DNA from: Patescibacteria group bacterium
GTDB taxonomy: Bacteria; Patescibacteriota; Patescibacteriia; Magasanikbacterales; JBBTQS01
Length of the DNA: 64,000 nucleotides
NCBI GenBank assembly: GCA_038065555.1
Contig: JBBTQS010000004.1
Location: 65-64,064 of the forward strand
Direction of reading: 5' to 3'
Shown: in pieces, positions 1-61,042 of the stretch
Position numbering within the stretch: the stretch's first letter is position 1
How the letters are laid out: the number at the start of each line of letters is the position of its first letter
The notes under the pieces: generated by a model
Told to the model about the DNA's origin: nothing
Databases searched by the model: none
Seen by the model: the letters and a program-made list of their open reading frames with translations, nothing else
Position numbers and translations under genes: made by a program

Positions 1-300
1 ACCCCCTACTCGTCATAGCCTTGGTGAGCCATTACCTCACCAACTAGCTGATAAGCCATAGGCCCCTCGCACACCGAAATTCTTTACATGAGAAAGTCAT
101 GCGACCCCTCATGTCCATCGTGTATTAGCGTCTCTTTCGAAACGTTATCCACGAGTGTGCGGTAGGTTACCAATGTGTTACGCACCCGTTTGCCACTAGA
201 CGTTCCCTTGATGTAATCGCAGAAACATCTCGTTCGACTTGCATGCCTCAGCCACGCCGCCATCGTTCGTCCTGAGCTAGGATCAAACTCTCAAATTTGA
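1..300 (-). rRNA. rrs: 16S ribosomal RNA, 5' portion (gene continues past the window start)
   Basis: Reverse complement of ~281-300 reads AGAGTTTGATCCTAGCTCAGGACGAACGATGGCGGCGTGGCTGAGGCATGCAAGTCGAACG, the canonical 16S 5' end. Downstream matches conserved 16S helices. Confidence 0.9.
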
Positions 301-4479: not shown

Positions 4480-4652
4480 GATCTTTATCTCCAAGGTTTG
4501 ATCGGAATGAAAAGAGCGGTGCTGGAGAAATCCGAGCACAGTCTTGAAGATAACAAGGCATACTACTAAGGATTTACCAAGTTGTCAATATAGCAAAAGC
4601 CCCAACCACGCGTCGCGCAGTTAGGGCCTCATTGTCTCTGTTGTCACACACG

Positions 4653-21829: not shown

Positions 21830-21952
21830 GCACAACCCAGAGACCACAGTCCGGATGAACGAGAACACTCGTTGCACCGGCTGTGGTCTTCTGCTTTTGA
21901 CAACTCGCAACCTTGCTCCTACACTGAGCGCATATTCATTTCTTCCTGGCGT

Positions 21953-39411: not shown

Positions 39412-39456
39412 GATACACTGCTTTTTCACCCATTGTGTATGCATTTGGTTGACCGC

Positions 39457-41937
39457 ATGACAACACATCTGCGCACATCCTTGCGTCAGGCAATGGCTAT
39501 AGCCACGCGTCAGGGATATGCACTCGTATACCCAGAACATCTACTCCTTGGGTTATTGAACACGCGCGGATCTATCGGATGCGAGCTCTTGCGCAAGTAC
39601 GGCGCAGACAAGAAATCTGTCCTCGCTGGAGCCCTGCGCCACCGCAAACACAAACTCATCAAACAAGTCCCTGCATTCTCCAAAGACGCGCGCCATTGCA
39701 TTGAGCGCGGATTTTTCATTGGATCCCAGCACCAGCATGTGCTCATCGGCACAGAGCATTTGCTTCTTGCGATGGTCGAGAACAACAACCCTGCCGTACT
39801 TGATGCAGTGAAGAAGTTGCGCGTAGATACCAAGGAAGTCTCATCCTATATCCACATGATCTTGCGCAGCACCAGCAAGTTCCAGGAGATCACCTCAGCA
39901 CTCACAAGCAACACCAATGTCGTTGCCGCAGCAGAGCACACGCACATCGGTGACTCAGGACTCATTGTTCCCACCGACGCCTCTGCAGTACCCAAGAAAA
40001 AACGCTCGCTCCAGACCCTCGAACAATTTGCACGCGAACTCACCAGCGCAAAGGCGCTCGAATCACTCGACCCAGTGATCGCGCGCGACGCAGAGGTAGA
40101 ACGCATGATTCAGATTTTGTGCCGCAAGACGAAGAACAACCCACTCCTCATCGGCGATCCAGGTGTAGGTAAGACTGCGATTGTAGAAGGACTCGCGCAG
40201 CGCATTGCCGCAGGACAGGTTCCGCCGATTCTTGAGCGCAAGCGAATTTTCTCATTGGACCTCTCACTCATGATTGCAGGCACTGTGTACCGCGGAGAAT
40301 TCGAGTCCCGCATCAAGCAACTCATGGAAGAAGTGAAGGCACATCCAGAGGTCATTCTCTTCATCGACGAAATCCACACCATCGTCGGAGCAGGCGCAAC
40401 ATCAGGATCACTCGATGCAGCCAACATGATCAAACCAGCGCTTGCGCGTGGTGAACTCCGCTGCATCGGCGCAACCACATACCAAGAATACAAGAAATAT
40501 ATCGAAGCTGATCCGGCATTTGATCGACGATTCGGCAAAATTACGATTGACGAGCCTAATGCTGCAGCAACACTTGAGATTCTCCAAGGCCTCAAGGGCG
40601 CGTACGAACAGTTCCACAACGTACTGATCACCGACGAAGCGCTTGCCATGGCCGTAGAGGGTGCAGCACGTCACATCCCTGATGCATTCTTCCCAGACAA
40701 GGCCATCGATCTCATTGATGAAGCATCTGCAGCAGCTGCAACCAAGCACCCCAAGAATCCAGCGATTGCAAAGCTCGCAGAAATCGATCAAGCAATCGAG
40801 GTCATCGACGCCAAGAAGCGCGACGCCGTGATGCAAGAAGATTACGAGCAAGCATTGCTCCTCAAATCCCACGAACAGGAGCTCCTCGCGCACCGTGAAG
40901 CGCTCACAACACGATCACGCCAGCGTGGAACAGCGCGCACCATTGATAGTAGCGATATTTTGCGCGTACTCACCGTTCGCACAGGTTCTCCTGTGGCAAT
41001 GGACGCAGTGCATCTGCCTACACGTGTTGGCAACATTCGCAGTGCACTCACGCAATCCATCATTGGCCAAGATGCTGCACGCACACGCATCGTGCAGGCA
41101 CTCGAAAAAGGCATTCTCGGGCTCCAGACACGCAAGCGCCCGCTTGCGGTATTGTTGTTTGTCGGACCATCCGGAACGGGCAAGACACACACCGCAAAGG
41201 CAATTGCTCGCGCAGTCTATGGCGAAGAGAAACACCTCATTACCATCGACATGTCCGAGTACCGCGAGTCCTACTCTATTTCCAAATTACTCGGCTCACC
41301 TGCTGGCTACGTTGGCTACCGTGAGCAAACCTCGCTCACCGATCGCATCCGCCGCGCACCACACAGCGTCCTCCTCTTCGATGAAATCGACAAAGCGCAT
41401 CCAGACGTACACAACCTCTTCCTCCAAATGGTGGACGAAGGTGCTATTACTGACGCAACAGGCCGACGCGTAGATCTCTCACGATCCATCATCGTCATGA
41501 CAGCCGCTGCAGGACCAGAAATGGCAGCAGCACCTCTGGGATTTGGCACCGCAAAATCCGGCGTTGCAGCAACAACTGCTCCTGACACGCACTACCAGAA
41601 TCGTCTCAAAGACTTGTTCCGCAGTGAATTCTTGTATCGTCTTGACGCGATCGTACCTTTTGTCGCACTTACTCGCGACGACTTGCGCGCGATTGCCAGC
41701 CGTGAGATCACCAAGTACATGGAACGCGTTGCGCACTTGGGATTTGCACTCACACTCGACGAAGATGTGCTTGATTGGATTGCAGACCGCGCCGCGAACT
41801 CGCCACAGATGGGCCGAACAGTGTATACTATCATCGAATCGGAAATTATTCCGATGCTTACATCGCGCATGCTGGAGGGCTCGGCGTCCAATGACCTGCG
41901 CGTCACGCGCACCGAGAACGCGTTGTCCCTCGCATAG
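39457..41937 (+). CDS. clpC: ATP-dependent Clp protease ATP-binding subunit ClpC/ClpA-type (two AAA+ modules)
   Basis: Clp_N repeat; Walker A GDPGVGKTAI and GPSGTGKTH; sensor regions; IDMSEY...GYVGY. Start at MTTHL. Confidence 0.88.
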   Translation: MTTHLRTSLRQAMAIATRQGYALVYPEHLLLGLLNTRGSIGCELLRKYGADKKSVLAGALRHRKHKLIKQVPAFSKDARHCIERGFFIGSQHQHVLIGTEHLLLAMVENNNPAVLDAVKKLRVDTKEVSSYIHMILRSTSKFQEITSALTSNTNVVAAAEHTHIGDSGLIVPTDASAVPKKKRSLQTLEQFARELTSAKALESLDPVIARDAEVERMIQILCRKTKNNPLLIGDPGVGKTAIVEGLAQRIAAGQVPPILERKRIFSLDLSLMIAGTVYRGEFESRIKQLMEEVKAHPEVILFIDEIHTIVGAGATSGSLDAANMIKPALARGELRCIGATTYQEYKKYIEADPAFDRRFGKITIDEPNAAATLEILQGLKGAYEQFHNVLITDEALAMAVEGAARHIPDAFFPDKAIDLIDEASAAAATKHPKNPAIAKLAEIDQAIEVIDAKKRDAVMQEDYEQALLLKSHEQELLAHREALTTRSRQRGTARTIDSSDILRVLTVRTGSPVAMDAVHLPTRVGNIRSALTQSIIGQDAARTRIVQALEKGILGLQTRKRPLAVLLFVGPSGTGKTHTAKAIARAVYGEEKHLITIDMSEYRESYSISKLLGSPAGYVGYREQTSLTDRIRRAPHSVLLFDEIDKAHPDVHNLFLQMVDEGAITDATGRRVDLSRSIIVMTAAAGPEMAAAPLGFGTAKSGVAATTAPDTHYQNRLKDLFRSEFLYRLDAIVPFVALTRDDLRAIASREITKYMERVAHLGFALTLDEDVLDWIADRAANSPQMGRTVYTIIESEIIPMLTSRMLEGSASNDLRVTRTENALSLA

Positions 41938-41966: not shown

Positions 41967-43208
41967 ATGGACAAACGAAAACTGTTGGCCCTCATCGGCC
42001 TCATTGTGGTTACGATCGGACTTGCGATCGGAATCTACTTTGTTTTTTTCCGCAGCGCACCTGCACCAACACCCACTGACGTCACAACACCGGGTGGCGG
42101 TGGACAACTGCTCGGCGCAGATGGTGAGCGTATTCCAGGTACTGGTGTAACAACTACACCTGATGGCGGCCCACAAGGCATTGGCACAGAACCAGGTGGA
42201 GCATCCCCAATCGCCGATGGTGGAATCACTCGCGTACGCCAGCTCGTTCCATCAGGCACAGCCAATATCACTGTCGAAGGCAACTCCGGAACCGTCCAGT
42301 ACTACGACACCGACACCGGACTTTTTCACAAAATTCTTGCAGACGGAACCAACGTTGTGCTCAATGACGAAGCTCCTTTTCCAAATGCCAAAGACGTGAA
42401 CTGGAGCAACGCCACAGACAAAGCGATCATCGAATTCCCCGATGGCGCAAATGTGCTCTACAACTTCGAGACCAAGCAACAAGTCACACTCCCATCGCAC
42501 TGGGCAGAATTTGAGTTCTCCCCGAATGATTCTCAGATCGCAGCAAAGAAATTGAGCATTGATCCAAGTAGCCGCTACCTCGTAATCGCGTCCCCAGATG
42601 GCACCTCAGCAAAAAACGTAGTTGCACTGGGACAGAACGCCAACAAAGTACAAGTTTCGTGGTCACCAAACGACCAAATGGTCGCCTTTTCGCAAACAGG
42701 CAGAGCGATTGGATTGGGTCGTGAGCAAGTGCTTGTCGTCGGCAAAAACAACGAGAACTTCAAAGCACTCACCGTAGAAGGACTCGGATTCAAGCCGAAG
42801 TGGTCGCCACAAGGTGACATTCTCCTCTACAGCAGCTTCCGCCAAGCAAACAATCTTGCGCCTGAGTTGTGGGTTGTACGCGGCACTGCAGATCGCCTGG
42901 GCGAAGATCGCCAACCACTCGGTCTCTCCACCTGGGTCGAGAAATGTACCTTTGCCAACAACACAACACTCTACTGCGCCGTTCCAGATCCTGATCGCCT
43001 CCCCTATGGCATTGGATTCCAGCTCGCACTTGCAACCAACACCGATGATTCGATTTACAAAGTTGATCTCGAGACAGGACGCACCACACTTGTGGGCAAA
43101 CCTGAAGGATCATTCACGATTGATTCGCTCCGTGTAGCACCTGATGAATCAGCAGTGTACTTCACTGATCGCATCACTGGTTCGTTGCAGCAAATGCAAC
43201 TGCAATAA
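41967..43208 (+). CDS. membrane-anchored beta-propeller (TolB/PD40-like) protein
   Basis: N-terminal TM, Gly/Pro-rich linker, PD40-like repeats SWSPNDQMVAF / KWSPQGDILLY. Confidence 0.65.
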   Translation: MDKRKLLALIGLIVVTIGLAIGIYFVFFRSAPAPTPTDVTTPGGGGQLLGADGERIPGTGVTTTPDGGPQGIGTEPGGASPIADGGITRVRQLVPSGTANITVEGNSGTVQYYDTDTGLFHKILADGTNVVLNDEAPFPNAKDVNWSNATDKAIIEFPDGANVLYNFETKQQVTLPSHWAEFEFSPNDSQIAAKKLSIDPSSRYLVIASPDGTSAKNVVALGQNANKVQVSWSPNDQMVAFSQTGRAIGLGREQVLVVGKNNENFKALTVEGLGFKPKWSPQGDILLYSSFRQANNLAPELWVVRGTADRLGEDRQPLGLSTWVEKCTFANNTTLYCAVPDPDRLPYGIGFQLALATNTDDSIYKVDLETGRTTLVGKPEGSFTIDSLRVAPDESAVYFTDRITGSLQQMQLQ

Positions 43209-43214
43209 CGACGT

Positions 43215-43865
43215 ATGTCAGACCACGGCAAAGCACTTGTCATCACTGCGCTACTCCTTGCCGCACTCACGGTGGTTGGTTGGGGTGCGTACTCGTTGTC
43301 ACGTCCCAAGCCGGCTGATCTTCGTCCTCGCGCCAACTACCTGACGACCGCACCACCTGTGCTCCCCACTGATCCAACCATGGGACCAGCAACTGCAAAG
43401 GTAACAATCATTGCATTCATGGATCTTGGATGCGGGCCGTGCGCCCGTGCGATGACCATTCTCCAAGACGTACATCAGCGCATGCCAGAAGTTCGTATCG
43501 TGTGGAAGGACGTACCTGAGCATGGTGAGAGTATCCCAGGATTTATGACTGCACACATTGGCGCACGTTGCGCAGATCGCTCTGGCAAATTCTGGGACTA
43601 CGCCGCAGAGTTCTTCTCCCGCCAGGATGAAGTTCATACGTTCAACCACGCCGCACTTGCAACACAACTCGGACTCCCACTCGACGCATTCAACAAATGT
43701 CTCACGTCCGAAGGTGCATCTGCCGCTATCCAAACCAATATCTTGCAAGCACGCGAGCGCGGCATATTCTCCACACCATACTTCTTCATCAATAATCGTC
43801 GTGTTGATGGTGTAGTACCAACAGCAACCATGCTCAAATACATTATTGACGAACGTCGCAAGTAA
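43215..43865 (+). CDS. DsbA-family thiol:disulfide oxidoreductase (membrane-anchored)
   Basis: CGPC active site within a thioredoxin fold; N-terminal TM. Confidence 0.8.
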   Translation: MSDHGKALVITALLLAALTVVGWGAYSLSRPKPADLRPRANYLTTAPPVLPTDPTMGPATAKVTIIAFMDLGCGPCARAMTILQDVHQRMPEVRIVWKDVPEHGESIPGFMTAHIGARCADRSGKFWDYAAEFFSRQDEVHTFNHAALATQLGLPLDAFNKCLTSEGASAAIQTNILQARERGIFSTPYFFINNRRVDGVVPTATMLKYIIDERRK

Positions 43866-43867
43866 GT

Positions 43868-45685
43868 ATGTTCAACCGTCTTGGAATCATTCTTGCCACT
43901 CTCGCACTTCTCCTGAGCGCCTCACCTGCGCCTGTATTTGCTATTACCGACGATGCGCTTACCGGCTCCACTGATGCAGCAAGTCCTACTGGATGCACGT
44001 GCACAGGTGCGCTGACCATCAGTTCAGGTGGCAAAGTCGCTGCAGGTCTTGCAGGATACGACCTCCCCAAAGTTTGTTCACAAGCTGCAGGAACCTACAA
44101 AGACGACACCTGCTCCAATCTCAAAGCCATCATCACAGCAGCAGACGCCGACGCCTGCACCAAGACAACAGTAGATGAGCTCATGGCAACCTATGGCATT
44201 CCACAGTTTGCCAAATCATACGTAACGGTTGTCGGGAGCTGTAGCTGGGGACCAGTGAGTGCGACTGTCGAAGCTCAAGCACCTGCTGTTACTGCTGTTG
44301 GCCAGCAAATGAGCGGCCAAAAAGAAGTAGAAGCCGAAAAAGAAAAACTCCCACCCAAAGCAATCAAACCAACACTTTCCATCGACATTCCAACAGTCTC
44401 CTTCACTGACCCCGAAGACTTGTCCTTGGTCGAAGATGCCAACGGTTCCAAATTTGTCATTCCGTATATTGGTCAGTATATCAACGGTGTATTTGAATAC
44501 GCTGTCGGACTCCTGGCATTTATTGCCGTCATGACCATTGTTGTTGCTGGACTCATGTGGGCAACTGCAGGAGGTAATGCGTCTCGCATCAGTAGTGCAA
44601 AAGAAGCGATCGGCCGCGCATTCATTGGTCTAGGAATTCTGCTCGGATCGTACACTATTTTGTACATTATTGACCCCAACTTGACGCAGTTGGGCCCCAT
44701 CAGTCTCAACGTGGTAGAGACCGAAGAATTCGAACTCAAGCAATTCGACAAATACGTCGCCGAGCCTAGTAACCCCGCGGACAAGGAACCAGGTGACGAA
44801 TCTACCCAAGGCGGCGCCGTTGCTTCCCCTGCAACAAAGCTGCTTACTGGTGCTGCAACTGGCGAGACCCAACGAGGTCGCTGTCAGATTGTGAACCTCC
44901 AGAACTTCCCGAAGTTCGACATCAACGCATTTGGTGATGGCAGCAATGGCAAATGTTTGTTACAAGAATTTGCGCCAACAATCGGGCAGTCCACTGCATT
45001 TGAAGGTCAGTATCTCACCAACACCACATTCCTAGGACGCACCGTCAAAGTACACAAAAAAGCAGCAGCTTCACTTCAAAAAGTCGAAGCGGAGATCAAA
45101 TCAATTCCATCACCTATTGTGAAAAAGTGGGTCGCAAGTTTCACCACACAAGGTGCGTACGTACAATACGCAGACAAAATGGAGAAGCTCTACGCACAGT
45201 GCGACAAGCCAGGTGCAAAAACGTGGGTAGTAACAAGCTCAAGTGGCGCTACAAAAGCACGCCTCTTCACCCGCATCCTCAAAAACTTGCACGGCAACCA
45301 CAGCGACGTCTTGCGTGGTGACTTGCACAGCCTCGGACTAGCCATCGACATGTACGCACCGCAAAACCCTGACTATCGACCAATCATCACCAACATTCCA
45401 CAACAAGTTGTGGATGCATTTCGCAGAAATGGCTGGTCATGGCTCGGTGCAACAGACCGACGTGACGCAATGCACTTCCAATATTTTGGTTCAACTTGTT
45501 TCTCAGGTCTTGGTACTGCATACCCAACCGGCACAGGCTGCTGCATCAATCAATGGCCAACCAAATCCAAGGCAACCGGCAAGTTCTCGGGCTGTATGGC
45601 AGCAGGTGGTGTAGCAACTTCCTACACTGAGTGTATGGGCGCGAATGGAAAGGCTGGTAATGGCTGGGTAGCTCAAAACCCATGA
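43868..45685 (+). CDS. secreted Cys-rich protein with central two-TM hairpin and C-terminal LAS/M15-type zinc peptidase domain
   Basis: Signal peptide ...PVFA-IT and ~7 Cys in the N-domain. Conserved block IPYIGQYINGVFEYAVGLLAFIAVMTIVVAGLMWATAGGNASRISSAKEAIGRAFIGLGILLGSYTILYIIDP. C-terminus carries HSLGLAID and DAMHFQY (H..G.A.D / D..H peptidoglycan-hydrolase zinc site). Confidence 0.7.
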   Translation: MFNRLGIILATLALLLSASPAPVFAITDDALTGSTDAASPTGCTCTGALTISSGGKVAAGLAGYDLPKVCSQAAGTYKDDTCSNLKAIITAADADACTKTTVDELMATYGIPQFAKSYVTVVGSCSWGPVSATVEAQAPAVTAVGQQMSGQKEVEAEKEKLPPKAIKPTLSIDIPTVSFTDPEDLSLVEDANGSKFVIPYIGQYINGVFEYAVGLLAFIAVMTIVVAGLMWATAGGNASRISSAKEAIGRAFIGLGILLGSYTILYIIDPNLTQLGPISLNVVETEEFELKQFDKYVAEPSNPADKEPGDESTQGGAVASPATKLLTGAATGETQRGRCQIVNLQNFPKFDINAFGDGSNGKCLLQEFAPTIGQSTAFEGQYLTNTTFLGRTVKVHKKAAASLQKVEAEIKSIPSPIVKKWVASFTTQGAYVQYADKMEKLYAQCDKPGAKTWVVTSSSGATKARLFTRILKNLHGNHSDVLRGDLHSLGLAIDMYAPQNPDYRPIITNIPQQVVDAFRRNGWSWLGATDRRDAMHFQYFGSTCFSGLGTAYPTGTGCCINQWPTKSKATGKFSGCMAAGGVATSYTECMGANGKAGNGWVAQNP

Positions 45686-47553
45686 TGCGCTCTTTCCTTG
45701 CAATAATCATCGGCCTTGCGATCTTTCTCCCTGCGTCCACACACGCAGCAGTCAAATGCACCGTAACTGAGGACTGCAATCCAGGCACGACCAACACAAT
45801 GTGCGTGTACACGAAGTTCGACCCTGCTTCCAAGCAGTTCGACACCGCAAGTGGCATGTGTCTCTCAGGGTCCGCAGTCAGCAGCATGCCTGATTGCGAT
45901 TTTGCTGGCATACAAATCTGCTCAACACAAAAAGCAAGCACCTGCGTTGGTATTATCTCCCAAGTAGGCAAGCAGCCAGCGAGTGGCGACACCGCATGTC
46001 TGCCTACAGAACTCATCATCGTTACCGACACCGCTGAAAAACTCCAACAAAACTCTGCTGCCGCCCAAGAAACAATCCTCGCAGCAACCATCAACTACGA
46101 ACAGGAGAAAGAGGCAATCGAAGCAACGTATCAATCGGTCGTCACCAATCCCCAAGCAACAGAACAACAAAAAATTGACGCACTCGTCGCACGCGAACAA
46201 GCGCTCAAGAACGCTGCGATCGAACACAGTGTCGTTATTGGAGCCATTTCCAAAACACTCAAGGAATCGACTGACGCAGCACTGAGCGAAGGTGCACTCG
46301 CTGTAGCTGGCGCAACGCAGCCAACCTCAGACTTGCCACTTCCTGCAACACTCAACGTGCCTATCCCAGGCGTAGTGTTCAGCAACCCAGCAGATATTGC
46401 AGGACGTGACGACGCTGGTGGGCGACTGAGTATCCCCTATATCGGACAATACATTGCTGGTGTCTTCCAATACTCACTCTACGTACTCGCAGGGCTCGCA
46501 GTGTTTGTAATCATATTCGCTGGCGTGCGCTGGATCCTCGCGCGTGGAAATGCATCGGAAATCAAAGATGCGAAGGAAATGATCACCGGATCGTTCATCG
46601 GCCTCATGATCGCATTGCTTTCCTACAGCATGTTGCAAATTATTGATCCTCGGCTCACAACACTCTCCCCCATAGGCCTCGCGCAAATTGAAGCAACTGA
46701 ATTCAAGTTCGAGCTCTCCGCACAAGTCTACCAACAAGTCACTGGCGGCAAACCACTCGATCTCTCCTCTGGTGGGAGAGCACAAAACGCTGCAACAGCA
46801 GCAACGGCAGCGCAAAACCTCGGCATACCACCTTGCCTTGCACAGGTTATCGTAAAACATGAATCAGGTGGCAACCCCGCAGTCATTGGACACGACGAGA
46901 ACTACTGCGGCCCTAACTATGTTGGCTCACGCTTCGCCTTCCTTCGCACAGAAAAAACATACAAAGGCGTTGCATTCGAGAGCACTATCCCATCCCTCAT
47001 TCCACCGTCCTCCGACAAGAGCCCGCAAGCCAAGGCTCTGCGCAAAAAAATCAGTTGTGAATCACACAAGAACGACGATGGCGGCAAGAATATCGATGCT
47101 ACCACATTTGTTCCACCTGATTTTGGACTGGACTGGAGATTTACCCACGGCTTTGGGTTGGGACAGGTAACATTTGGAGATGGACACTACTGCAATGTGA
47201 ACGGTCAACAAGTACGCGGTATCAAGATCAAAGGACTTAATAATCGCTGTGTCACGGTGCCAGAATTGATTTCCGTGGACACCGCAGTCGAAGCTATGGC
47301 TGGCCGCCTCCTCTCGTGGTATAAAAAGGCTGGTGGCGTACCAGGCACTCCGCAGAACCAAGTACCAGAATCAGTCATTCGCCTCACCTTCGCGCACTAT
47401 GGCAAAGGTAACGACCCAGGAGATCTCTATCGAGACTCCGTGAATGGTCGCGTCAAACACTATCTCGAATGTGTCAAAGGAACAGGCTCAAGCGCTCCTG
47501 AGACCTCAACGGGCGAAAAACTTTCTGACGGATTGCCCGCTGCCGAAGAATAA
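45682..47553 (+). CDS. paralog: secreted Cys-rich protein with two-TM hairpin and C-terminal lytic transglycosylase (SLT) domain
   Basis: Same architecture: IPYIGQYIAGVFQYSLYVLAGLAVFVIIFAGVRWILARGNASEIKDAKEMITGSFIGLMIALLSYSMLQIIDP. C-terminus has AQVIVKHESGGNPAVIGHDEN (SLT catalytic Glu-Ser motif). Confidence 0.7.
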   Translation: MMRSFLAIIIGLAIFLPASTHAAVKCTVTEDCNPGTTNTMCVYTKFDPASKQFDTASGMCLSGSAVSSMPDCDFAGIQICSTQKASTCVGIISQVGKQPASGDTACLPTELIIVTDTAEKLQQNSAAAQETILAATINYEQEKEAIEATYQSVVTNPQATEQQKIDALVAREQALKNAAIEHSVVIGAISKTLKESTDAALSEGALAVAGATQPTSDLPLPATLNVPIPGVVFSNPADIAGRDDAGGRLSIPYIGQYIAGVFQYSLYVLAGLAVFVIIFAGVRWILARGNASEIKDAKEMITGSFIGLMIALLSYSMLQIIDPRLTTLSPIGLAQIEATEFKFELSAQVYQQVTGGKPLDLSSGGRAQNAATAATAAQNLGIPPCLAQVIVKHESGGNPAVIGHDENYCGPNYVGSRFAFLRTEKTYKGVAFESTIPSLIPPSSDKSPQAKALRKKISCESHKNDDGGKNIDATTFVPPDFGLDWRFTHGFGLGQVTFGDGHYCNVNGQQVRGIKIKGLNNRCVTVPELISVDTAVEAMAGRLLSWYKKAGGVPGTPQNQVPESVIRLTFAHYGKGNDPGDLYRDSVNGRVKHYLECVKGTGSSAPETSTGEKLSDGLPAAEE

Positions 47554-47564
47554 TCTCTCTCGGT

Positions 47565-48929
47565 ATGAAAACTCCTTCTCGCGTATACACGTGTAGCAAC
47601 TGCGACGCGCAATCTTCGAAATGGTCTGGCCGCTGTGAACAGTGCGGTAAGTGGGGCACAATCGATCCCGAAGGATCCATGCCCACAGCCGCAGCAAAAG
47701 CTGGCGCCAACATCAATGCTCCTGCGCGCACTCCGGTATCACTCGCATCTGTTGATCCCAATCGCGCCGCACCAGAGCGCATCCGTACGGCTATCGTTCC
47801 TGTTGACGCGGTGCTGGGCGGCGGATTCGTCCCCGGCTCTCTTGTGCTCCTTGGTGGTGACCCCGGCGTAGGCAAATCTACGCTCTCGCTCCACGTAGCG
47901 TCACACGTTCCACGCACACTCTACGTCTCAGGTGAAGAATCCATCGAGCAAGTGCGTCTGCGCGCTCTGCGCCTCGATAGCAACGACGTACTCGCCCTGC
48001 ACGAAACCAACTGTGACACGATTCTCACAACACTCATCAAGGAAAAACCGGCACTCGCCATCATCGACTCCATCCAGACCATCACCACAGCATCTGCAGA
48101 AGGTGGCGCAGGATCAGTCGGCCAAATCCGCGCGTGCACAACACAACTCCTCCACGTTGCAAAACAGCACAACATTGCAGTACTCCTCATCGGACACGTA
48201 ACAAAGGATGGTTCTGTGGCTGGCCCAAAGACACTCGAGCACCTTGTTGACGCCGTACTCTATCTCGAAGGCGACGATCAGCATTCCATGCGCATTCTGC
48301 GCGCCGTGAAGAACCGATTCGGCTCTACAGACGAGATCGGGATTTTCTCTATGGACGCAAATGGTCTCACGCCGACCAATGCGGCATCGAGCGCCTTCCT
48401 CTCCCCTGACCGCGTACATGTTCCAGGATCTATTGTGACTGTGCTCATGGATGGCAAACAACCTCTGCTCGTCGAAGTCCAAGCACTCACCACGCGCACT
48501 ACATTTGGCTATCCACAACGCCGTGCAAGCGGGTTCGACCTCAATCGCCTCCAAGTACTCATCGCAGTACTCACGACGCGCGCGGGGCTCCCGCTAGGAC
48601 AATATGATGTATTCGTGAATGTTGTTGGTGGAGTGAAGGTAACAGAGCCTGGCGCAGATCTAGCCATTGCTGCAGCCATCGTGAGCAGTATGCGCAATGT
48701 AGCGTGGTCTGCAGGCACTGTCGCCTTTGGCGAAGTGGGACTTGGTGGAGAGGTTCGTCCTGTTCGTGCGCTCGATCGTCGCGTACAAGAATCACTCATC
48801 CTCGGATTCTCCACCTGTATCACTCCCAAATTCCCTGGCGCAACTACGGCAACAGTCACCACGGTGCGTGATCTCGTTGGCGTACTTGATGCACGCACAT
48901 CCTCCGAGGCACAAGAGGCATTCGAATAG
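47565..48929 (+). CDS. radA: DNA repair protein RadA/Sms
   Basis: N-terminal C4 zinc finger CSNCDAQSSKWSGRCEQCGKW, RecA-like Walker A GDPGVGKST, KNRFG motif, Lon-like C-terminus. Confidence 0.92.
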   Translation: MKTPSRVYTCSNCDAQSSKWSGRCEQCGKWGTIDPEGSMPTAAAKAGANINAPARTPVSLASVDPNRAAPERIRTAIVPVDAVLGGGFVPGSLVLLGGDPGVGKSTLSLHVASHVPRTLYVSGEESIEQVRLRALRLDSNDVLALHETNCDTILTTLIKEKPALAIIDSIQTITTASAEGGAGSVGQIRACTTQLLHVAKQHNIAVLLIGHVTKDGSVAGPKTLEHLVDAVLYLEGDDQHSMRILRAVKNRFGSTDEIGIFSMDANGLTPTNAASSAFLSPDRVHVPGSIVTVLMDGKQPLLVEVQALTTRTTFGYPQRRASGFDLNRLQVLIAVLTTRAGLPLGQYDVFVNVVGGVKVTEPGADLAIAAAIVSSMRNVAWSAGTVAFGEVGLGGEVRPVRALDRRVQESLILGFSTCITPKFPGATTATVTTVRDLVGVLDARTSSEAQEAFE

Positions 48930-49362: not shown

Positions 49363-51456
49363 TTACTCTAAGTGCGCTGCATGCACATTGCGTGTGCGTC
49401 CATACCACAACGTATCGAGCACCTTTGTGACCTCTCCACTCTCTCCAACAAGCGCTTGTGCAATAACAGAACCGCGCTCCAAGAGCGGCGTGTCGGCAAC
49501 CGACGCAACAGTGAATGCGCTATCCCCTGATTGCATATCACCAAAGAGGTCGCCCGGACCGCGAGTATCGAGATCATACTGCGCCAGCACAAACCCATCA
49601 GTGCATCCTGCGAAGAAATCCAGCCGAGCACGCGCAGCCTGTGATGCATTCTCACTCGAAACAAAACAATACGACTGCGCCTCTCCACGACCCACGCGTC
49701 CGCGCAACTGATGCAGTTGGGCAAGGCCGAACCGATGCGCCTCCTCAATGACCATGCAACTCGCATTCGGAATATCTACTCCTACTTCGATGACGGTCGT
49801 TGTCACCAAGAGCATTGTTTCGCGTGCTGCAAAGGCGCGCATCACTTCTTGTTTTTCTTTTGCTTTGAGTTTGCCATGCAGTAATCCCATGGGGATATCT
49901 GTGAACACCTCGGCGCGCAGACGCTCCCACTCTTGGGTTACAGACTTCATCCCAGACGTATCTGCAGCATCAATAGCTGGACACAATACGAACACCTGCC
50001 GCCCAGCCGCAATCTCGCGACGCAGAAATGCATACATCTTCTGTCGTGTGGCACTATCTGCAACAACATGTGTCTTGATCGGTTTGCGCCCCGCAGGTTT
50101 GCTATGCATCGTGGAGATATCGAGATCGCCGTACAACATGAGCGCATACGTACGCGGAATTGGCGTTGCTGTGAGAGACAAGAAATGCGCGCTACCAGTA
50201 CGACTTCCACGATCAAGGAGCGCCTGCCGCTGACGCACACCGAACCGATGCTGCTCATCAACAATAACGAGACCCAACCCTGGCACCGAGAGATCTTCTT
50301 CTATGAGCGCGTGCGTACCCACCACTAATTCATATTTCCCCTCTGCAATCTCCTGCTTGATGCGTTGTTTGTGCTTGGTGCTCCCTGTAAGCAACGCCAT
50401 ACGCACCGGCAATCCATCGAAAAGCCGTGTCAGCGTGCGTGCATGCTGCTCGGCAAGCACTTCCGTAGGCACCATCATGAGTGTTTGGTTGTGATTGAGC
50501 GCCGCGTGCCATGCGGCCGCAGCAGCAACCGCAGTCTTGCCCGATCCCACATCTCCCTGAATCAACCGACGCATAGGATGTGACTCTGCAGTGTCCTGAA
50601 TAATTTTCCAAATCACTTTTTTCTGATCATCAGTGAGTGTGAATGGCAACTGCCCCACAAATCGCTGCATCTCATGTTCAAAAAAATGAAAATCAGGCGC
50701 TGTACTCTTCTTGCGTGTTGCCCGCGCACCAGCCGAGACCACAAGCATCGGCATGATTTCCTCCAATGCGATGCGACGACGCGCGCTCGTGATGTCTTCG
50801 TAGCTGGTCGGCGCATGCAATAGGTGCAATGCCTGCCCCAATGGCACTACATCTGCTTGAGTACGCAACGCCGGTGTGAGCCAATCATGTTGTTGCGTAC
50901 AAAGAGGTAACACCTGCGCGATAAGTGATCGGATGTGACGCACGGTGAGCCCTGCAGTCGTAGAATAGACAGGAACAAGTCTCCCGGTGTGCGTACGCGG
51001 CGCATCAGGTGCTGCCACACGCTCATACTGTGCACCACTGAAGACCAACCCAATGCCATCGAGTTTCACTTCACCCGCAAGCGCGATCGTATCACCTTGC
51101 TTGATCGTCTTCCCGATGAATGGTTGATTGAACCACATCGCGCGCACCGTACCCGTACCATCATCAATAATCGCCTCGGTCACCATCTTGTGCGTGCGCC
51201 ACGACCGACGATTCGTAATCATACTCACCACACCCTGCACAGTCGCTGTCACACCTTCGGTCAACTCCTGCACCGTGACACTCTTCTGAAAATCGTCGTA
51301 CCGAAATGGCACGTGCCACAATAATTCCTCCACTGTAGTGAGGTTCAGGATTGCGAGACGCTTTGCCAACAGCTCTGTAACGCCGCGCAACGCCGTGATA
51401 GGGCTTCGGAGGTTCAATGGGGCTGCCATACCCGGGTATTCTACCGCAGACCGCAA
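49363..51456 (-). CDS. recG: ATP-dependent DNA helicase RecG
   Basis: Wedge domain; helicase motifs GDVGSGKT, DEQH, TATPIPRT. True start may be a few codons internal. Confidence 0.92.
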   Translation of the reverse strand: MRSAVEYPGMAAPLNLRSPITALRGVTELLAKRLAILNLTTVEELLWHVPFRYDDFQKSVTVQELTEGVTATVQGVVSMITNRRSWRTHKMVTEAIIDDGTGTVRAMWFNQPFIGKTIKQGDTIALAGEVKLDGIGLVFSGAQYERVAAPDAPRTHTGRLVPVYSTTAGLTVRHIRSLIAQVLPLCTQQHDWLTPALRTQADVVPLGQALHLLHAPTSYEDITSARRRIALEEIMPMLVVSAGARATRKKSTAPDFHFFEHEMQRFVGQLPFTLTDDQKKVIWKIIQDTAESHPMRRLIQGDVGSGKTAVAAAAAWHAALNHNQTLMMVPTEVLAEQHARTLTRLFDGLPVRMALLTGSTKHKQRIKQEIAEGKYELVVGTHALIEEDLSVPGLGLVIVDEQHRFGVRQRQALLDRGSRTGSAHFLSLTATPIPRTYALMLYGDLDISTMHSKPAGRKPIKTHVVADSATRQKMYAFLRREIAAGRQVFVLCPAIDAADTSGMKSVTQEWERLRAEVFTDIPMGLLHGKLKAKEKQEVMRAFAARETMLLVTTTVIEVGVDIPNASCMVIEEAHRFGLAQLHQLRGRVGRGEAQSYCFVSSENASQAARARLDFFAGCTDGFVLAQYDLDTRGPGDLFGDMQSGDSAFTVASVADTPLLERGSVIAQALVGESGEVTKVLDTLWYGRTRNVHAAHLE

Positions 51457-52463: not shown

Positions 52464-52874
52464 TTATTTTTTCCTGCGCGCAACACTCACGAGTGCGAGG
52501 AGTATCACCACAAATGCGACCAGTCCCAGCAGCGGAATCGTCACAAACCCCATCATCTCCACACGCTCAGTGGTACAGCTCACCGCGCGAACACACAGTG
52601 CACGCGTATCAGGCAACAGGCCGAAATACAGCGCATTGTGATACAGCGAAATCAAGAATCCAACACCTGCCAGCGGCAACGCATACCACACCACTCCCCG
52701 ATCTCGCCGCACCAATCCAACACCAAGAATGATGACCAACGGAAAGAGCGCGATGCGCTGATACCAACACAATATACAAGGCGGGAGTCCCATGCCATAT
52801 TGCACGAATAGACTCCCAAGCATCGCAACAACACTCTGCACAAGCGCAATCCACACACCCACGCGTTGTGACAT
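52464..52874 (-). CDS. dsbB: disulfide bond formation protein B (DsbB/BdbC family)
   Basis: Four TM helices, CILCWYQR first Cys pair, second pair in the CVRAVSC loop. Confidence 0.8.
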   Translation of the reverse strand: MSQRVGVWIALVQSVVAMLGSLFVQYGMGLPPCILCWYQRIALFPLVIILGVGLVRRDRGVVWYALPLAGVGFLISLYHNALYFGLLPDTRALCVRAVSCTTERVEMMGFVTIPLLGLVAFVVILLALVSVARRKK

Positions 52875-58726: not shown

Positions 58727-58819
58727 AGTGCCACTAGTATATCATGCAGAACAAAAAAAGATGACCCGCCGGCGTTGAAGCGCGCGGCGGGCCAGTTGAA
58801 CACACGATGGTGTCGTCTC

Positions 58820-59251
58820 CTACAGAAGCCGCAGCTCCCGCATGTTGCGCGGAAATTTCCAGGACTCGCACGTGAGCCCTGTCTCAATCCGCGACATCCA
58901 CTTCCTCGTGATCTCATCGGTCGGTTCGACGACGAGATCCAGATGGTAGCACCGCCTCAGTGGTGGTGCTTGGACGCTTGTTCTCAGAACCCTCAGTCGC
59001 GGAGCAACGTCCTTGACGATACTCCACATGAATGGAAGATATCCACCACTCTTCAATGGATAGGGCAGATACACCCCCTTCCACGTCTCCACCTCCTTTT
59101 GCGAAATGATCCGGTCTGGCTCGAAGATGAGCTTGAGACCGGAGAGTTGCTTGTCGAACGTGACCACAATCACGCCCCATTGGTTTGGGCTCGTCACACG
59201 AATCCCCGCCTCGTTGCCGCGCACATCTCGTGCAGCAATTACGGTCGGCAT
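58820..59251 (-). CDS. hypothetical protein (143 aa)
   Basis: Strong RBS GGGAGGAGAAGAGG 2 nt before ATG. Protein-like composition. Lies antisense to the non-coding 5' extension of the ORF-track 58775-61042 call. Confidence 0.5.
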   Translation of the reverse strand: MPTVIAARDVRGNEAGIRVTSPNQWGVIVVTFDKQLSGLKLIFEPDRIISQKEVETWKGVYLPYPLKSGGYLPFMWSIVKDVAPRLRVLRTSVQAPPLRRCYHLDLVVEPTDEITRKWMSRIETGLTCESWKFPRNMRELRLL

Positions 59252-59350
59252 CGCCTCTTCTCCTCCCTGCGTTCACACCCGGAGCGCAAGTGTGGTATAC
59301 TATCGCCAATCAAACATTTTGTCAAGTATTACTTGCGTAATCATTTCTCT

Positions 59351-61042
59351 ATGTCGAAACGTTCTTTTTCAGAAAGTGACCCATCGATGCGTGGCGCACA
59401 TGGAGTAACTGGCGAACACGCAATCTCCGATACTCGACACAAAAGCATCGAGGAGCAGTTATCTCCTGCAGCACTCGCCGAACTTGCGCGTGATCAAGAG
59501 CGTTGGAACAAAGAAGATGCTGAGTTCATTGACGAACACGAAAAGTCACTCGAGACCAAACACCGAAACGCGCTCGCCGAAGCGCGCACAGAGGCGCTAC
59601 AGGCTGAAAAAGAAGTCTCGACTGAACTCGAAACACTTCTCGAGAGCAGTGCGCTTCCACCATTGGCAAAGAGAATCCTGAGTTCTGACACACATCTACG
59701 CAGTCAATTTGCAGATTCTCTGATCGAAGCTGCAGCACAAAATGGAACTACTGTTGATCGACTGAACAAAAATGGATGGAACGAAGCATTCGAAAGCGTG
59801 ATTGCACTACGACAACAAGAGTTAGAAGCACACGGACTTGCATTTGATACAGATGGTACACTTCTCCAAGGAGAAACATCCCGACGACTCAGCGAACACG
59901 ATACATTGCTCGCCAAAGAGCTCATGTGGTTGCGTGAACTTCTTCACGAGGAACCAGGCACAGCGAACAAGCCAAACCGCTTGGAGCCAACCCGTCCTCT
60001 GCGCCCTACCGCACAGCCAAAAGCAACACCTCCTCGCGAAACCAACAAACCATTCTTCAACCGAGTAGCATCCAAATTCGGCAAATTCCTTGCAGGTGTT
60101 GGACTCTGGCTTGGCGGAACCAGTGGTGGAGATTTCGACCAATCGTCGAACCAGCGCGCGCAGGACGAACAGGAGCCGAATCGCGCCCTTCCAGCATACG
60201 CAGCAGAATCACCTTCACGAAATACTCGCGCAGAACTCCCTTCTGACTCTATCGAATTCTCCGAAGAAGAATCCATGGATGTCATGAATAGTGCACGTCC
60301 TGAGGTTCCTTCTGAGATGATCGAGTTCTCCGAAGAAGAATCTGAGGCAGTGATGAAGGCTGAGGTAGCTGCAGCAGTGCGCAAAGCAAAGGCACAGAAC
60401 ACCAACAAAGCAGGCGCAACACGTGCAAAAGCAAGCACAGTGAACACCAAGCGTGCAGCAGCACCAGAAGGCACAAAGGCAATGCCGAAGGCAGCACAAG
60501 ACATGCTCGACGCATTCAAGTGGTACAGCGATGAAGTTACCAAGCCTAAGACGCGCGAATCCGTGAACAACGGTGGCGCAGCCAACGAACTCCTCAAGAG
60601 CGTACCCAAGGCTCCAGAGAAGCGTCAGTCTGTTGCGCGCTACAAAGTTGCTGCAACCAGACTTGCGCAAGAGTATGCCAAGGGATCTGTTGGAGACGAC
60701 GATCTCACATCATTGCGCGGCACCGTTGAGAGCGACATGCAGCGAGGCAAAATCAATCCTGTTGATGGCAAGAAGTTGCTCCGCGATATCGACGACATGC
60801 GCGGTGTTCCCGAAGCTCAACAAGCAGCAAAGCCAGCGCCAGAATTCAAGAAGCCAGTCATGGCTCGCACACCAAGCAAGAGCCGAGGTCTCTCTGCCAT
60901 CCAAGCACAGACCGCGGAAGGCAAGAAAGTTCTCTCTGATATTGACCGCCAGATTCAATCCGTTCGCGACGCAGTACATCGCGGCGAACTCACATTGAAG
61001 CAAGGCGCAGAGCAGGTTCGAATGCTCAAAGACCTCAAGTAG
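59351..61042 (+). CDS. acidic, low-complexity/disordered protein with internal IEFSEEES repeat
   Basis: Start at MSKRSFSE. Long charged coiled-coil/disordered regions. Direct repeat of ~23 nt (atcgaattctccgaagaagaatc) about 66 nt apart. Confidence 0.55.
   Translation: MSKRSFSESDPSMRGAHGVTGEHAISDTRHKSIEEQLSPAALAELARDQERWNKEDAEFIDEHEKSLETKHRNALAEARTEALQAEKEVSTELETLLESSALPPLAKRILSSDTHLRSQFADSLIEAAAQNGTTVDRLNKNGWNEAFESVIALRQQELEAHGLAFDTDGTLLQGETSRRLSEHDTLLAKELMWLRELLHEEPGTANKPNRLEPTRPLRPTAQPKATPPRETNKPFFNRVASKFGKFLAGVGLWLGGTSGGDFDQSSNQRAQDEQEPNRALPAYAAESPSRNTRAELPSDSIEFSEEESMDVMNSARPEVPSEMIEFSEEESEAVMKAEVAAAVRKAKAQNTNKAGATRAKASTVNTKRAAAPEGTKAMPKAAQDMLDAFKWYSDEVTKPKTRESVNNGGAANELLKSVPKAPEKRQSVARYKVAATRLAQEYAKGSVGDDDLTSLRGTVESDMQRGKINPVDGKKLLRDIDDMRGVPEAQQAAKPAPEFKKPVMARTPSKSRGLSAIQAQTAEGKKVLSDIDRQIQSVRDAVHRGELTLKQGAEQVRMLKDLK

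Follow-up and report, generated by a model that had tools for sequence, protein, structure and literature searches.

A VirB2-like hairpin joined to predicted peptidoglycan hydrolases in a radA-linked gene block of a Magasanikbacterales bacterium

Type IV secretion systems (T4SS) of Gram-positive bacteria need hydrolases of the VirB1 class to pass through the thick cell wall. Examples are PrgK of pCF10, TraG of pIP501, CwlT of ICEBs1 and TcpG of pCW3. These enzymes are membrane-tethered and extracytoplasmic, and they join a glycan-cleaving lysozyme or SLT domain to a peptide-cleaving domain, which may be CHAP, NlpC/P60 or LytM. A single polypeptide with one N-terminal anchor carries both activities.

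In Patescibacteria, the T4SS is among the few machines shown to be essential to epibiotic life (PMC10633639, PMC11665869), and its function is described as unknown (PMC11665869, PMC12857230). Arrays of VirB2-like pilins have been published for the T4SS of this phylum (PMC12102498, PMC10633639), and radA, recG and comF are common members of T4SS loci in class ABY1 (PMC12102498). Two essential proteins are encoded after VirB4 in S. epibionticum, one of lysozyme-like/Cys-protease type and the other with a DD-peptidase (M15) fold at its C-terminus (PMC10633639 supplement). In addition, cryoET of a Saccharibacterium has revealed a tube of 8.6-9 nm with a barbed tip that enters the host (PMC11880426).

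The locus described below lies in a window of 64,000 nucleotides (positions 65 to 64,064 of contig JBBTQS010000004.1, assembly GCA_038065555.1) from a Patescibacteria group bacterium of the Magasanikbacterales. A preliminary description, made from the sequence alone, had singled it out as an extracytoplasmic module inserted between clpC and radA.

Organization of the gene block

The block (positions 41967-47553) consists of four closely spaced ORFs on the + strand between clpC and radA, as had been described (Table 1). The spacers, first given as 3-30 bp, measure 29, 6, 2, -4 (an overlap) and 11 nt from clpC through genes 1 to 4 to radA. Matches resembling promoters or terminators are no commoner here than in shuffled sequence.

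Table 1. Features of the block and its flanks (window positions).
Feature	Position	Strand	Evidence
ClpC-type double-AAA+ ATPase, upstream flank, 29-nt gap	39433..41937	+	Pfam Clp_N, AAA, AAA_lid_9, AAA_2, ClpB_D2-small
Protein 1, 413 aa, TM anchor and TolB-like beta-propeller	41967..43208	+	
Protein 2, 216 aa, membrane-anchored DsbA-type thiol-disulfide oxidoreductase	43215..43865	+	
Protein 3, 605 aa, signal peptide/Cys-rich N-domain/VirB2-like hairpin/M15C-type peptidase region	43868..45685	+	
Protein 3 conserved block, aa 169-291	44372..44740	+	Match to protein 4 block, PF18895, pilin profiles
Protein 3 LAS/M15C peptidase domain, approx. aa 400-545	45065..45502	+	Peptidase_M15_4, Ply500
Protein 4, 623 aa, signal peptide/Cys-rich head/helical stalk/VirB2-like hairpin/lytic-transglycosylase domain	45682..47553	+	
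Protein 4 ectodomain: Cys-rich head aa 23-108 and two long helices aa 109-215	45748..46326	+	
Protein 4 conserved block (VirB2-like hairpin), aa 223-344	46348..46713	+	PF18895, hhalign
Protein 4 lysozyme-like/family-1 lytic transglycosylase domain, aa 376-600	46807..47481	+	
RadA, downstream flank, 11-nt gap	47565..48929	+	TIGR00416, 477 bits
RecG, convergent	49363..51456	-	Ortholog Pfam RecG_wedge, DEAD, Helicase_C; tblastn synteny
DsbB	52464..52874	-	PF02600, 51 bits

Protein 1 agrees with its first designation as a TM-anchored PD40/TolB-like beta-propeller. Its single N-terminal TM segment (residues 9-27) is followed by a Pro/Gly/Thr-rich linker and then by the propeller, in which a Cys pair (C327, C337) is invariant. 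The PD40 match lies just over the cutoff (21.3 bits, cutoff 20.9) and the TolB match is weak; its family profile matches 12 TolB structures (best E 0.0027). The TolB equivalog level of TIGR02800 is not reached (25.9 bits, cutoff 343), and no Tol-Pal genes were found among the ORFs scanned. Judged by these profiles, the likeness to TolB is one of propeller fold class only. Like TolB of Tol-Pal, protein 1 has a PD40-type beta-propeller predicted to face the wall, but it belongs to a monoderm organism without detected Tol-Pal partners, and an N-terminal TM anchor replaces the TolB N-domain. Its orthologs in ABY1-type loci are 38-45% identical, and recognizable orthologs adjoin the hairpin-transglycosylase gene in saccharibacterial T4SS clusters.

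Protein 2 has the features of a DsbA: thioredoxin-fold matches (Thioredoxin_4 75.6 bits, DSBA 45.3 bits), the expected CGPC motif (residues 73-76), a TM anchor (residues 7-25) and a DsbB partner gene. The latter, placed about 5 kb away in the preliminary description, was found 4.9 kb beyond the end of protein 4, and its product probably re-oxidizes the block's DsbA. A DsbA occupies the same position inside the block in 12 related loci. Proteins 3 and 4 contain 14 Cys each, with a Cys-free hairpin. The cysteines are divided between the N-domain and the region after the hairpin as 6+8 in protein 3 and 8+6 in protein 4, all even numbers; the N-domains had been credited with 7-9 Cys, which the counts of 6 and 8 correct.

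The shared hairpin and the domains joined to it

Proteins 3 and 4 each begin with a signal-peptide-like sequence and contain two TM-like helices (212-230 and 247-269 in protein 3; 268-286 and 300-321 in protein 4). As anticipated, they are paralogs of about 600 aa with a conserved two-helix hairpin. However, their similarity is limited to a 123-aa block (51% identity, E 3e-33), and no similarity between the N-domains was detectable by sequence comparison, contrary to the view that the N-domain is shared. The conserved block consists, in order, of an IPYIGQYI motif, TM1, a GGNAS..AKE loop, TM2 and an IIDP motif, and is flanked by about 170-220 aa before it and about 280-310 aa after it.

The resemblance of this hairpin to VirB2-TrbC modules was borne out by profile comparison. 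PF18895 scores of the two proteins fall under the gathering score of 26.6 bits (20.0 for protein 3, 22.4 for protein 4). One syntenic ortholog reaches 35.5 bits, and 84 of the 101 closest representatives match this family at E <= 1e-3. In hhalign, the profile of the family matches short Patescibacteria pilins, part of which bear PF04956, with 99.3% probability (E 4.4e-20), and a second profile recovers Patescibacteria pilins of 120-210 aa with PF18895, with or without PF04956. The pilin loop motif GG-x-x...AK is retained, as is the topology of a signal peptide followed by two hydrophobic helices with a short polar loop. Small-pilin size (roughly 70-190 aa) is not matched, the two proteins having 605 and 623 aa. 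The profile matches indicate that the hairpin is homologous to VirB2/TrbC-type pilins, and NCBI names protein 4 (MEK7648236.1) "pilin." An exhaustive profile search yielded 56,322 hairpin-bearing representatives, and the closest 147 have medians of 476 aa in length and 14 in Cys count. The domains partnered with the hairpin among relatives include SLT, M15/VanY, M23, Amidase_2, NlpC/P60, C39-like, C70, GDSL and GH18.

The C-terminal region of protein 3 contains the motifs HSLGLAID (487-494) and DAMH (533-536), in keeping with the LAS/M15-type zinc peptidase first proposed. It matches Peptidase_M15_4 over the cutoff (32.1 bits, cutoff 25, E 1.7e-7), and its family profile matches PDB 2vo9 (Ply500, an L-alanyl-D-glutamate peptidase) with an E of 2.7e-6. 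Residues H487, D494, D533 and H536 are invariant in that profile and align with the Ply500 Zn-ligand pattern H-x6-D...D-x-x-H. The domain thus appears to be of M15C type, closest to L-Ala-D-Glu endopeptidases.

The fold at the C-terminus of protein 4 is that of a family-1 lytic transglycosylase, and the corresponding activity is predicted. The ESGGNP motif on which an SLT C-terminus had been proposed is present, with E394-S395 invariant in the family, and GLGQ and AHYGKG align with EmtA, g-type lysozyme and MltC, consistent with a lysozyme-like fold. Protein 4 itself is unmatched by Pfam SLT at the gathering score (21.3 bits), while its saccharibacterial ortholog reaches 32.5 bits. The domain contains an insert of about 100 aa with the motifs GHDEN, NDD and DWRFTHG, and the family invariants there are GHDEN, NDD and DWRFSHG. 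Upstream of the hairpin, AF2 places helices at 109-154 and 161-211 (block pLDDT 74-89 over aa 131-180) in a model of moderate quality (mean pLDDT 52 over the full length, 64 for the C-terminal domain), which suggests a helical stalk of about 100 aa. The ectodomain is only 42% and 51-55% identical to orthologs in which the hairpin is 74-84% and the transglycosylase domain 79-83% identical.

Conservation and linkage to T4SS genes

The propeller, DsbA, hairpin-hydrolase, RadA and RecG genes are syntenic in Magasanikbacteria, Uhrbacteria and Paceibacter. The gene next after the hairpin genes is radA in 17 related loci, and gene order is kept down to 27-38% protein identity in several candidate phyla. 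ClpC precedes the block in most syntenic relatives and is absent or displaced in three (L016, L017, L027). The block has a GC content of 0.51-0.53, matching its surroundings. It is vertically conserved over class-level distances, and what is conserved is its linkage to radA/recG and to the T4SS.

In this genome, genes for a VirB6-like protein, a 503-aa protein, PrgI, a TraC-N-like protein, VirB4, a 208-aa protein and a ComFC-like protein lie 23.5 kb downstream. Two loci of the comparison set (L035/L038) are 100% identical to the window where they overlap it, and VirB4 (P0200) has a 100% match on an 881-kb contig. The PrgI match scores 30.4 bits, and the TrbL-like (VirB6-like) match is weak at 20 bits. 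VirB4, PrgI/VirB3 and VirB6-like genes are all present, the set by which a Patescibacteria T4SS (MPF-FATA-related) is recognized, a relaxase not being required. No other hairpin ORFs were found in about 86 kb. The distance of 23.5 kb and the location of the T4SS core on the other strand count against coupling to the block, and any co-regulation of the two would be putative.

In other lineages the two are adjacent. The order in Saccharibacteria and Nomurabacteria is VirB6-like, VirB3(PrgI), 215-aa protein, VirB4, 315-aa protein, hairpin-transglycosylase, propeller and second hairpin protein. In two Paceibacter-type loci (L023, L027), VirB3, a 215-aa protein, VirB4, a hairpin protein, the propeller, DsbA, the hairpin-transglycosylase and RadA are contiguous, and in L016, L017 and L029 RecG is followed by VirB4. 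The orthologs beside VirB3/VirB4 in these three lineages (Saccharibacteria, Nomurabacteria, Paceibacter-type) are only 27-33% identical to protein 4. The hairpin proteins are co-encoded with VirB4 and T4SS core genes, as pilins are, in the same genome here and side by side elsewhere, and the T4SS/pilus analogy first drawn is upheld. Two outcomes had been named as telling against the preliminary description, namely relatives with these four genes in unrelated loci and clpC and radA never adjacent in the lineage, or C-terminal domains that fail to match hydrolase families. The first is seen in part, for the propeller and hairpin-transglycosylase, which lie in another locus, the T4SS cluster, in relatives; the hydrolase predictions stood.

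Proposed role and relation to known systems

The block is probably an accessory part of the chromosomal T4SS, supplying disulfide-stabilized wall hydrolases in which VirB1 function is joined to a VirB2-type anchor. The lineage is probably of ABY1 type, with Uhrbacteria and Magasanikbacteria as relatives. Proteins 3 and 4 would both be exported by Sec, with the hairpin in the membrane and both of its flanks, the Cys-rich N-terminal ectodomain and the C-terminal enzyme, on the outer side. Their cysteines would be oxidized by the DsbA in the block, which nearby DsbB would re-oxidize. Protein 4 would cut glycan strands and protein 3 peptide stems, and together they would open peptidoglycan for the secretion conduit, doing the job of VirB1, PrgK or CwlT. 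The pilin-type hairpin may be a T4SS-directed anchor that docks with VirB3, VirB4 and VirB6-like proteins and so confines lysis to the machine, and the TM-anchored propeller may be a co-conserved scaffold or wall-binding partner.

It is unlikely that the proteins are membrane-tethered housekeeping autolysins for the cell's own growth and division, with pilin-fusion descent and T4SS proximity a historical accident. The organism does make peptidoglycan (MurD is encoded in the window, Ddl just outside), the vertically inherited block lies among core genes (murD, pgm, htpX-like M48, clpC, radA, recG, bipA), and no T4SS gene was found within 23 kb of it. However, the adjacency to VirB3/VirB4 recurs in lineages at the low identity to protein 4 given above, the pilin loop motif is conserved, and the polymorphic partner domain and fast-evolving head would be left unexplained.

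That polymorphism, which recalls effector families, would instead suit a host-directed function, in which the hairpin-hydrolases are pulled out of the membrane by the T4SS ATPase and built into a VirB2-type tube or placed at its tip. The enzymes and the variable Cys-rich heads would then be displayed on a conduit that breaches the host bacterium's wall and allows the epibiont to feed. This is rather unlikely, though the pilin loop motif is kept beyond mere hydrophobicity, sequence change is much quicker in the head and stalk than elsewhere in the protein, the hairpin-hydrolases are 67-72% identical to those of a relative whose VirB4 is 96% identical, and no short pilin gene was found near the T4SS core of this genome. 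The transglycosylase domain is conserved rather than diversifying, and no immunity-like gene adjoins the hydrolases, genes 3 and 4 overlapping and gene 4 ending next to radA. Moreover, given the structures of F and T pili, a helical filament of VirB2 type would hardly have room for 500-aa appendages at both ends of every subunit. The essentiality of a T4SS whose function is described as unknown (PMC10633639, PMC11665869) and the barbed tube entering the host (PMC11880426) also speak for host-directed action; any link between that tube and a T4SS would be conjectural. Quite unlikely is a further reading, that the hairpin-hydrolases are pilus subunits or tip/base adaptors fed by VirB4 into a short VirB2-type tube, an enzymatically armed conduit in which a variable disulfide-rich head on a coiled-coil stalk recognizes the partner cell, and the host wall is drilled by the transglycosylase together with a peptidase, amidase or esterase that can be exchanged. 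If true, it would explain what the essential Patescibacteria T4SS does, a function long sought, and give the molecular identity of the barbed cryoET "lance."

Finally, the proposal that the block is a recently inserted remnant of a mobile or conjugative element, for which one may cite the adjacency of clpC and radA in Firmicutes and the classical carriage of T4SS-type parts on plasmids or ICEs, is very improbable and contradicted by the deep synteny across several candidate phyla, the ordinary GC content, the variable presence of ClpC in relatives and the failure to find a relaxase, integrase, repeats or tRNA at the block borders.

The block had also been called no standard annotated system, which does not hold for its setting: the Patescibacteria T4SS, its pilin arrays and the radA/recG linkage are already published for the phylum, and protein 4 already has the NCBI name given above. 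No description of a pilin-hydrolase fusion was found in the literature searched. In many lineages, the VirB2-like proteins beside the machine include, besides small pilins, proteins of 300-1000 aa with predicted wall-degrading domains. This qualifies the published conclusion that a VirB1 equivalent is lacking in most VirB2-bearing genomes. A dedicated DsbA and a TolB-like propeller are also brought into connection with the T4SS. The predicted transglycosylase and swappable peptidase are assayable candidates for how an ultra-small monoderm passes a conduit through its own wall, and perhaps that of its host.

Compared with known enzymes, protein 3 shares its fold and the key residues H-x6-D...D-x-x-H with the M15C phage endolysins Ply500 and LysB4, and protein 4 shares its fold and the Glu-Ser motif with G-L-G-Q with Slt, MltC and MltE of E. 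coli and P. aeruginosa. All of these are soluble enzymes or lipoproteins and, unlike proteins 3 and 4, have no connection with pilin hairpins or T4SS. S. epibionticum SEML1_0006 and SEML1_0007, with lysozyme-like and Hedgehog/DD-peptidase (M15-type) folds after VirB4 and essential by Tn-seq, are alike by domain description. Their architectures (643 aa with two lysozyme-like domains and a Cys protease; 1113 aa) have no recorded pilin domain, and their essentiality is therefore not directly transferable to the block. In contrast to the VirB1-class enzymes, each of the two predicted activities here has a protein of its own with a pilin hairpin as anchor. The peptidase is M15C-like, and the transglycosylase domain has its large insert.

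The published VirB2-like arrays (Quinonero-Coronel et al. 2025, PMC12102498; Wang et al. 2023, PMC10633639; McLean et al. 2020, PMC7427843) have the same hairpin family (PF18895/PF04956) after an N-terminal signal peptide. Those arrays and the present one both consist of tandem divergent copies (51% hairpin identity here, a published maximum of 54%), and both are chromosomal and linked to VirB4 and, in ABY1, to radA/recG. The published arrays are treated as small pilins of about 120-190 aa, whereas here the hairpin lies mid-protein between a Cys-rich ectodomain and a predicted hydrolase. Also unlike those arrays, the present one lies 23.5 kb from VirB4, among a DsbA and a beta-propeller, and its predicted VirB1-type activity sits on the VirB2-like protein itself.

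Gene order and accessory proteins

ORF calling in the window finds four co-directional genes exactly where the preliminary description had placed them, encoding a propeller (protein 1), a DsbA (protein 2) and two hairpin-hydrolases (proteins 3 and 4). From the ClpC gene through the four ORFs to radA, the successive gaps are 29, 6, 2, -4 and 11 nt. The GC content of the block is 0.51–0.53, the same as in the remaining window, and promoter- or terminator-like sites in the region are no more numerous in a consensus scan than in shuffled sequence.

The order propeller, DsbA, one to three hairpin proteins, RadA and RecG (minus strand) is conserved. It recurs in one relative that is 66% identical, and also in relatives that are just 27–38% identical and are titled Magasanikbacteria, Uhrbacteria, Paceibacter or "Patescibacteria group". 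The genes had been read before as an insertion between clpC and radA; the shared order and the GC content speak against this, and a mobile-element insertion is rejected on composition and synteny. ClpC is mostly found upstream of the block, with an M48 protease gene in its place in two relatives (loci L016 and L017) and a displaced position in a third (L027).

Distant relatives carry a 765-aa (locus L004) or 777-aa (locus L006) protein between ClpC and the propeller. These have no Pfam match, are not alike by BLAST and have no counterpart in the window. A 755-aa window ORF was ruled out as their homologue, as it is not similar; it lacks both a Pfam family and a TM segment, and is kept in ENA assemblies, which give it a length of 699 or 563 aa. 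Several TPA metagenome records titled "uncultured Gammaproteobacteria bacterium" also carry a Patescibacteria-type locus (L008, L010, L014, L015, L019, L022 and L023), and these titles appear to be mislabelled.

Protein 1 (413 aa) has a single N-terminal TM helix followed by a Pro/Gly/Thr-rich linker. It reaches 21.3 bits against PD40 (cutoff 20.9), its similarity to TolB is weak, and its family profile, built from 12 sequences, matches 12 distinct TolB structures with a best E of 0.0027. Because of the PD40 and TolB-structure profile matches, protein 1 is a TolB-like propeller by fold class, while TolB proper is ruled out (25.9 bits, where the cutoff is 343). Protein 2 (216 aa) is a membrane-anchored DsbA (Thioredoxin_4, 75.6 bits) with CGPC at residues 73–76, and a DsbB gene is also found in the window.

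A VanW-like protein is a further wall-associated neighbour. Elsewhere in the window, an 899-aa protein joins a ResIII/DEAD helicase core to a C-terminal sigma-70 region 4 domain. A 379-aa ORF, overlapped by one of 461 aa that runs the other way, matches CsoSCA_cat, the carboxysome shell carbonic anhydrase catalytic domain (27.6 bits, cutoff 21.5), which is unexpected for a Patescibacteria genome. The window edge falls within the 5′ end of a 16S rRNA gene and truncates it.

Positions of the features discussed (window coordinates unless marked otherwise)
Feature	Position	Strand	Remark
16S rRNA gene, 5′ end	1-298	-	Rfam SSU_rRNA_bacteria, 215 bits
899-aa helicase/sigma-70 region 4 protein	1840-4539	-	
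VanW-like protein	17581-19602	-	PG_binding_4 domain
CsoSCA_cat ORF	21872-23011	+	
ClpC-type ATPase	39433-41937		left flank of block
Four-gene block	41967-47553	+	
Protein 4 Cys-rich head and helical stalk	45748-46326	+	two-helix; aa 23-215
Protein 4 LT insert	46870-47200	+	aa ~397-505
RadA	47565-48929		right flank of block; TIGR00416, 477 bits
DsbB	52464-52874	-	PF02600, 51 bits
755-aa ORF	58775-61042	+	
VirB4 (P0200)	71052-72959	-	extended coordinates
765-aa protein	L004:5783-8080		
777-aa protein	L006:5705-8038		
2817-aa, 313-aa and 503-aa genes	L038:1-9318		same genome, past window right end

The pilin hairpin and its C-terminal enzymes

Proteins 3 (605 aa) and 4 (623 aa) both have a signal-peptide-like start, with AxA-type sites read from the sequence as VFA/I and THA/A, and two TM-like helices. 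Each contains 14 cysteines, split 6+8 in protein 3 and 8+6 in protein 4 around a Cys-free hairpin. The two had been described as paralogues, and this holds for the 123-aa hairpin block (51% identity, E 3e-33), to which their likeness is limited; their N-domains cannot be aligned with each other.

The suggestion that the hairpin is VirB2-like is borne out. PF18895 (T4SS_pilin) matches both proteins slightly under threshold, NCBIfam gives a weak match to a Mycoplasma ICE pilin-like family, and the exact protein 4 is deposited in NCBI as MEK7648236.1, from a contig of 881 kb, under the name "MAG: pilin [Patescibacteria group bacterium]". Moreover, a block profile from nine syntenic proteins recovers Patescibacteria pilins of 120–210 aa with PF18895, several of which also carry PF04956 (TrbC/VirB2). 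In hhalign, the long-protein block aligns with 19 short pilins at 99.3% probability (E 4.4e-20), and the 75 aligned columns include the loop motif GG..(x)..AK. Judged from these profile matches, what proteins 3 and 4 share is a pilin domain of the T4SS type.

When 1.84 billion representatives were searched exhaustively with a profile, 56,322 proteins matched at E ≤ 1e-3, of which 11,054 reached E ≤ 1e-10; for the 147 that were measured among the listed best matches, the medians are 476 aa in length and 14 cysteines. Some representatives carry many tandem hairpin units in one polypeptide, with 17 matched stretches in 1775 aa (P0092), 11 in 1147 aa (P0090), 8 in 820 aa (P0055) and 7 in 606 aa (P0088), as if entire pilin arrays had been joined into polyproteins.

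Single-sequence queries with proteins 3 and 4 find no PDB sequence at E ≤ 1, and structural matches needed family profiles as queries. The proposed M15 end of protein 3 is confirmed: the protein passes Peptidase_M15_4, its family profile matches the L-alanyl-D-glutamate peptidase Ply500 (2vo9, E 2.7e-6), LysB4 and one further L-Ala-D-Glu endopeptidase, and H487, D494, D533 and H536 are invariant in the family. The C-terminal enzyme of protein 4 has no Pfam match. Its proposed SLT-type identity, a lytic transglycosylase (LT), is nevertheless borne out by the conserved E394-S395, GLGQ and AYNxG-like motifs and by sequence profiles that match lysozyme-like enzymes only (g-type lysozyme, E 0.006; MltC, 0.014; EmtA); EtgA and other transglycosylases associated with secretion or phages are further matches of the domain. 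An insert of ~100 aa separates the Glu-Ser motif from GLGQ, an insert with low pLDDT, in which GHDEN, NDD and DWRF[ST]HG are invariant and which is kept from ABY1-type lineages to Saccharibacteria. From these domain classes, the pair is predicted to cleave glycan strands (protein 4) and peptide stems (protein 3).

All 43 hairpin ORFs in 26 species-representative loci are long (302–1004 aa) and Cys-rich. The constant member in related loci is the transglycosylase type, whereas the domain of the second hairpin protein differs between lineages (M15/VanY, M23, Amidase_2, NlpC/P60, C39-like or C70); in the wider family, GDSL, GH18 and glucosaminidase domains occur as well.

Linkage to T4SS genes

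In Saccharibacteria/Nomurabacteria, the orthologue of the hairpin-transglycosylase (375 aa, Pfam SLT 32.5 bits) is the second gene past VirB4, in the order VirB6-like, 223-aa protein, PrgI/VirB3, 215-aa protein, VirB4, 315-aa protein, hairpin-LT, propeller and second hairpin protein. The propeller of these loci and protein 1 have an invariant KC...C..P core in common, and the saccharibacterial 315-aa protein has no similarity to protein 3. Two Paceibacter-type loci (L023 and L027) contiguously encode VirB3, a 215-aa protein, VirB4, a hairpin protein, propeller, DsbA, hairpin-LT and RadA, and VirB4 comes after RecG in three others (L016, L017 and L029).

Saccharibacterial VirB4, VirB3 and VirB6-like queries have no tblastn match inside the window. 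The T4SS core of this genome was located by extending past the right end, where minus-strand genes encode a ComFC-like protein, a 208-aa protein, VirB4, a TraC-N-like protein, PrgI (30.4 bits), a 503-aa protein, a VirB6-like 1104-aa protein (TrbL, a weak 20 bits) and a 2817-aa protein. Three genes beside the core (2817, 313 and 503 aa) have no Pfam family. The window and its right-hand extension contain no further hairpin ORF. Hain_H41 ENA contigs are 100% identical to the window across 11.7 kb, and the window belongs to a Patescibacteria MAG that was recovered from Hainich groundwater.

Proposed role and relation to known systems

A mechanism can be proposed that builds on the established domain identities, signal-peptide-like starts with two TM-like helices, Cys distribution, T4SS synteny and T4SS core. 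Proteins 3 and 4 would be exported by Sec, and DsbA/DsbB-dependent disulfides would form in both ectodomains; the earlier guess of disulfide dependence is probably right, judging by the cysteines and the DsbA/DsbB pair. The hairpin would act as a T4SS-directed anchor that confines glycan and peptide cleavage to the wall-crossing site of the conduit. The net result would be VirB1 function carried on a VirB2-type anchor; Quinonero-Coronel et al. conclude that VirB1 is missing from most genomes with VirB2 (PMC12102498).

Evolution is much faster in the hairpin-hydrolases than in the machine. In one relative, identities are 67% for protein 4 and 72% for protein 3, compared to 96% for VirB4, 89% for RadA and 95% for BipA. 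Among protein 4 orthologues, the Cys-rich head (42% identity) and the helical stalk (51–55%) have changed most, while the hairpin (74–84%) and enzyme domain (79–83%) are better kept. Because of this fast evolution and the retained pilin loop motif, a role beyond simple anchoring is suggested, and both features leave room for a bolder reading in which the hairpin-hydrolases are built into, or cap, a host-aimed VirB2-type tube. An 8.6–9 nm barbed tube entering the host has been imaged in a Saccharibacterium (PMC11880426), but nothing links it to the block genes. Three points speak against the tube reading: the enzyme core is conserved, no immunity gene lies next to the hydrolases, and a filament could hardly accommodate appendages of ~500 aa on each subunit. 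Plain housekeeping autolysins are also possible, a reading weakened because adjacency to VirB3/VirB4 is repeated in distant lineages.

VirB2-like arrays of 2–11 genes are described in 383 assemblies (Quinonero-Coronel et al., PMC12102498), and comF, recG and radA are common within the T4SS loci of the patescibacterial class ABY1 (PMC12102498). In S. epibionticum, the T4SS and pilin array are essential (Wang et al., PMC10633639), and in the tables of that study VirB4 is directly followed by a lysozyme-like/Cys-protease protein and by one with a DD-peptidase fold at its C-terminus, both scored essential (PMC10633639). In a limited literature search, where an earlier description may have been missed, none was found of fusions between pilin and hydrolase, of the DsbA within the block or of the propeller. 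The block, once considered not a standard annotated system, belongs to a known one, the Patescibacteria T4SS with pilin arrays and radA/recG linkage. Its pilin-hydrolase architecture is a variant of that system not found described in the literature searched, and it bears directly on how the essential Patescibacteria T4SS crosses cell walls.
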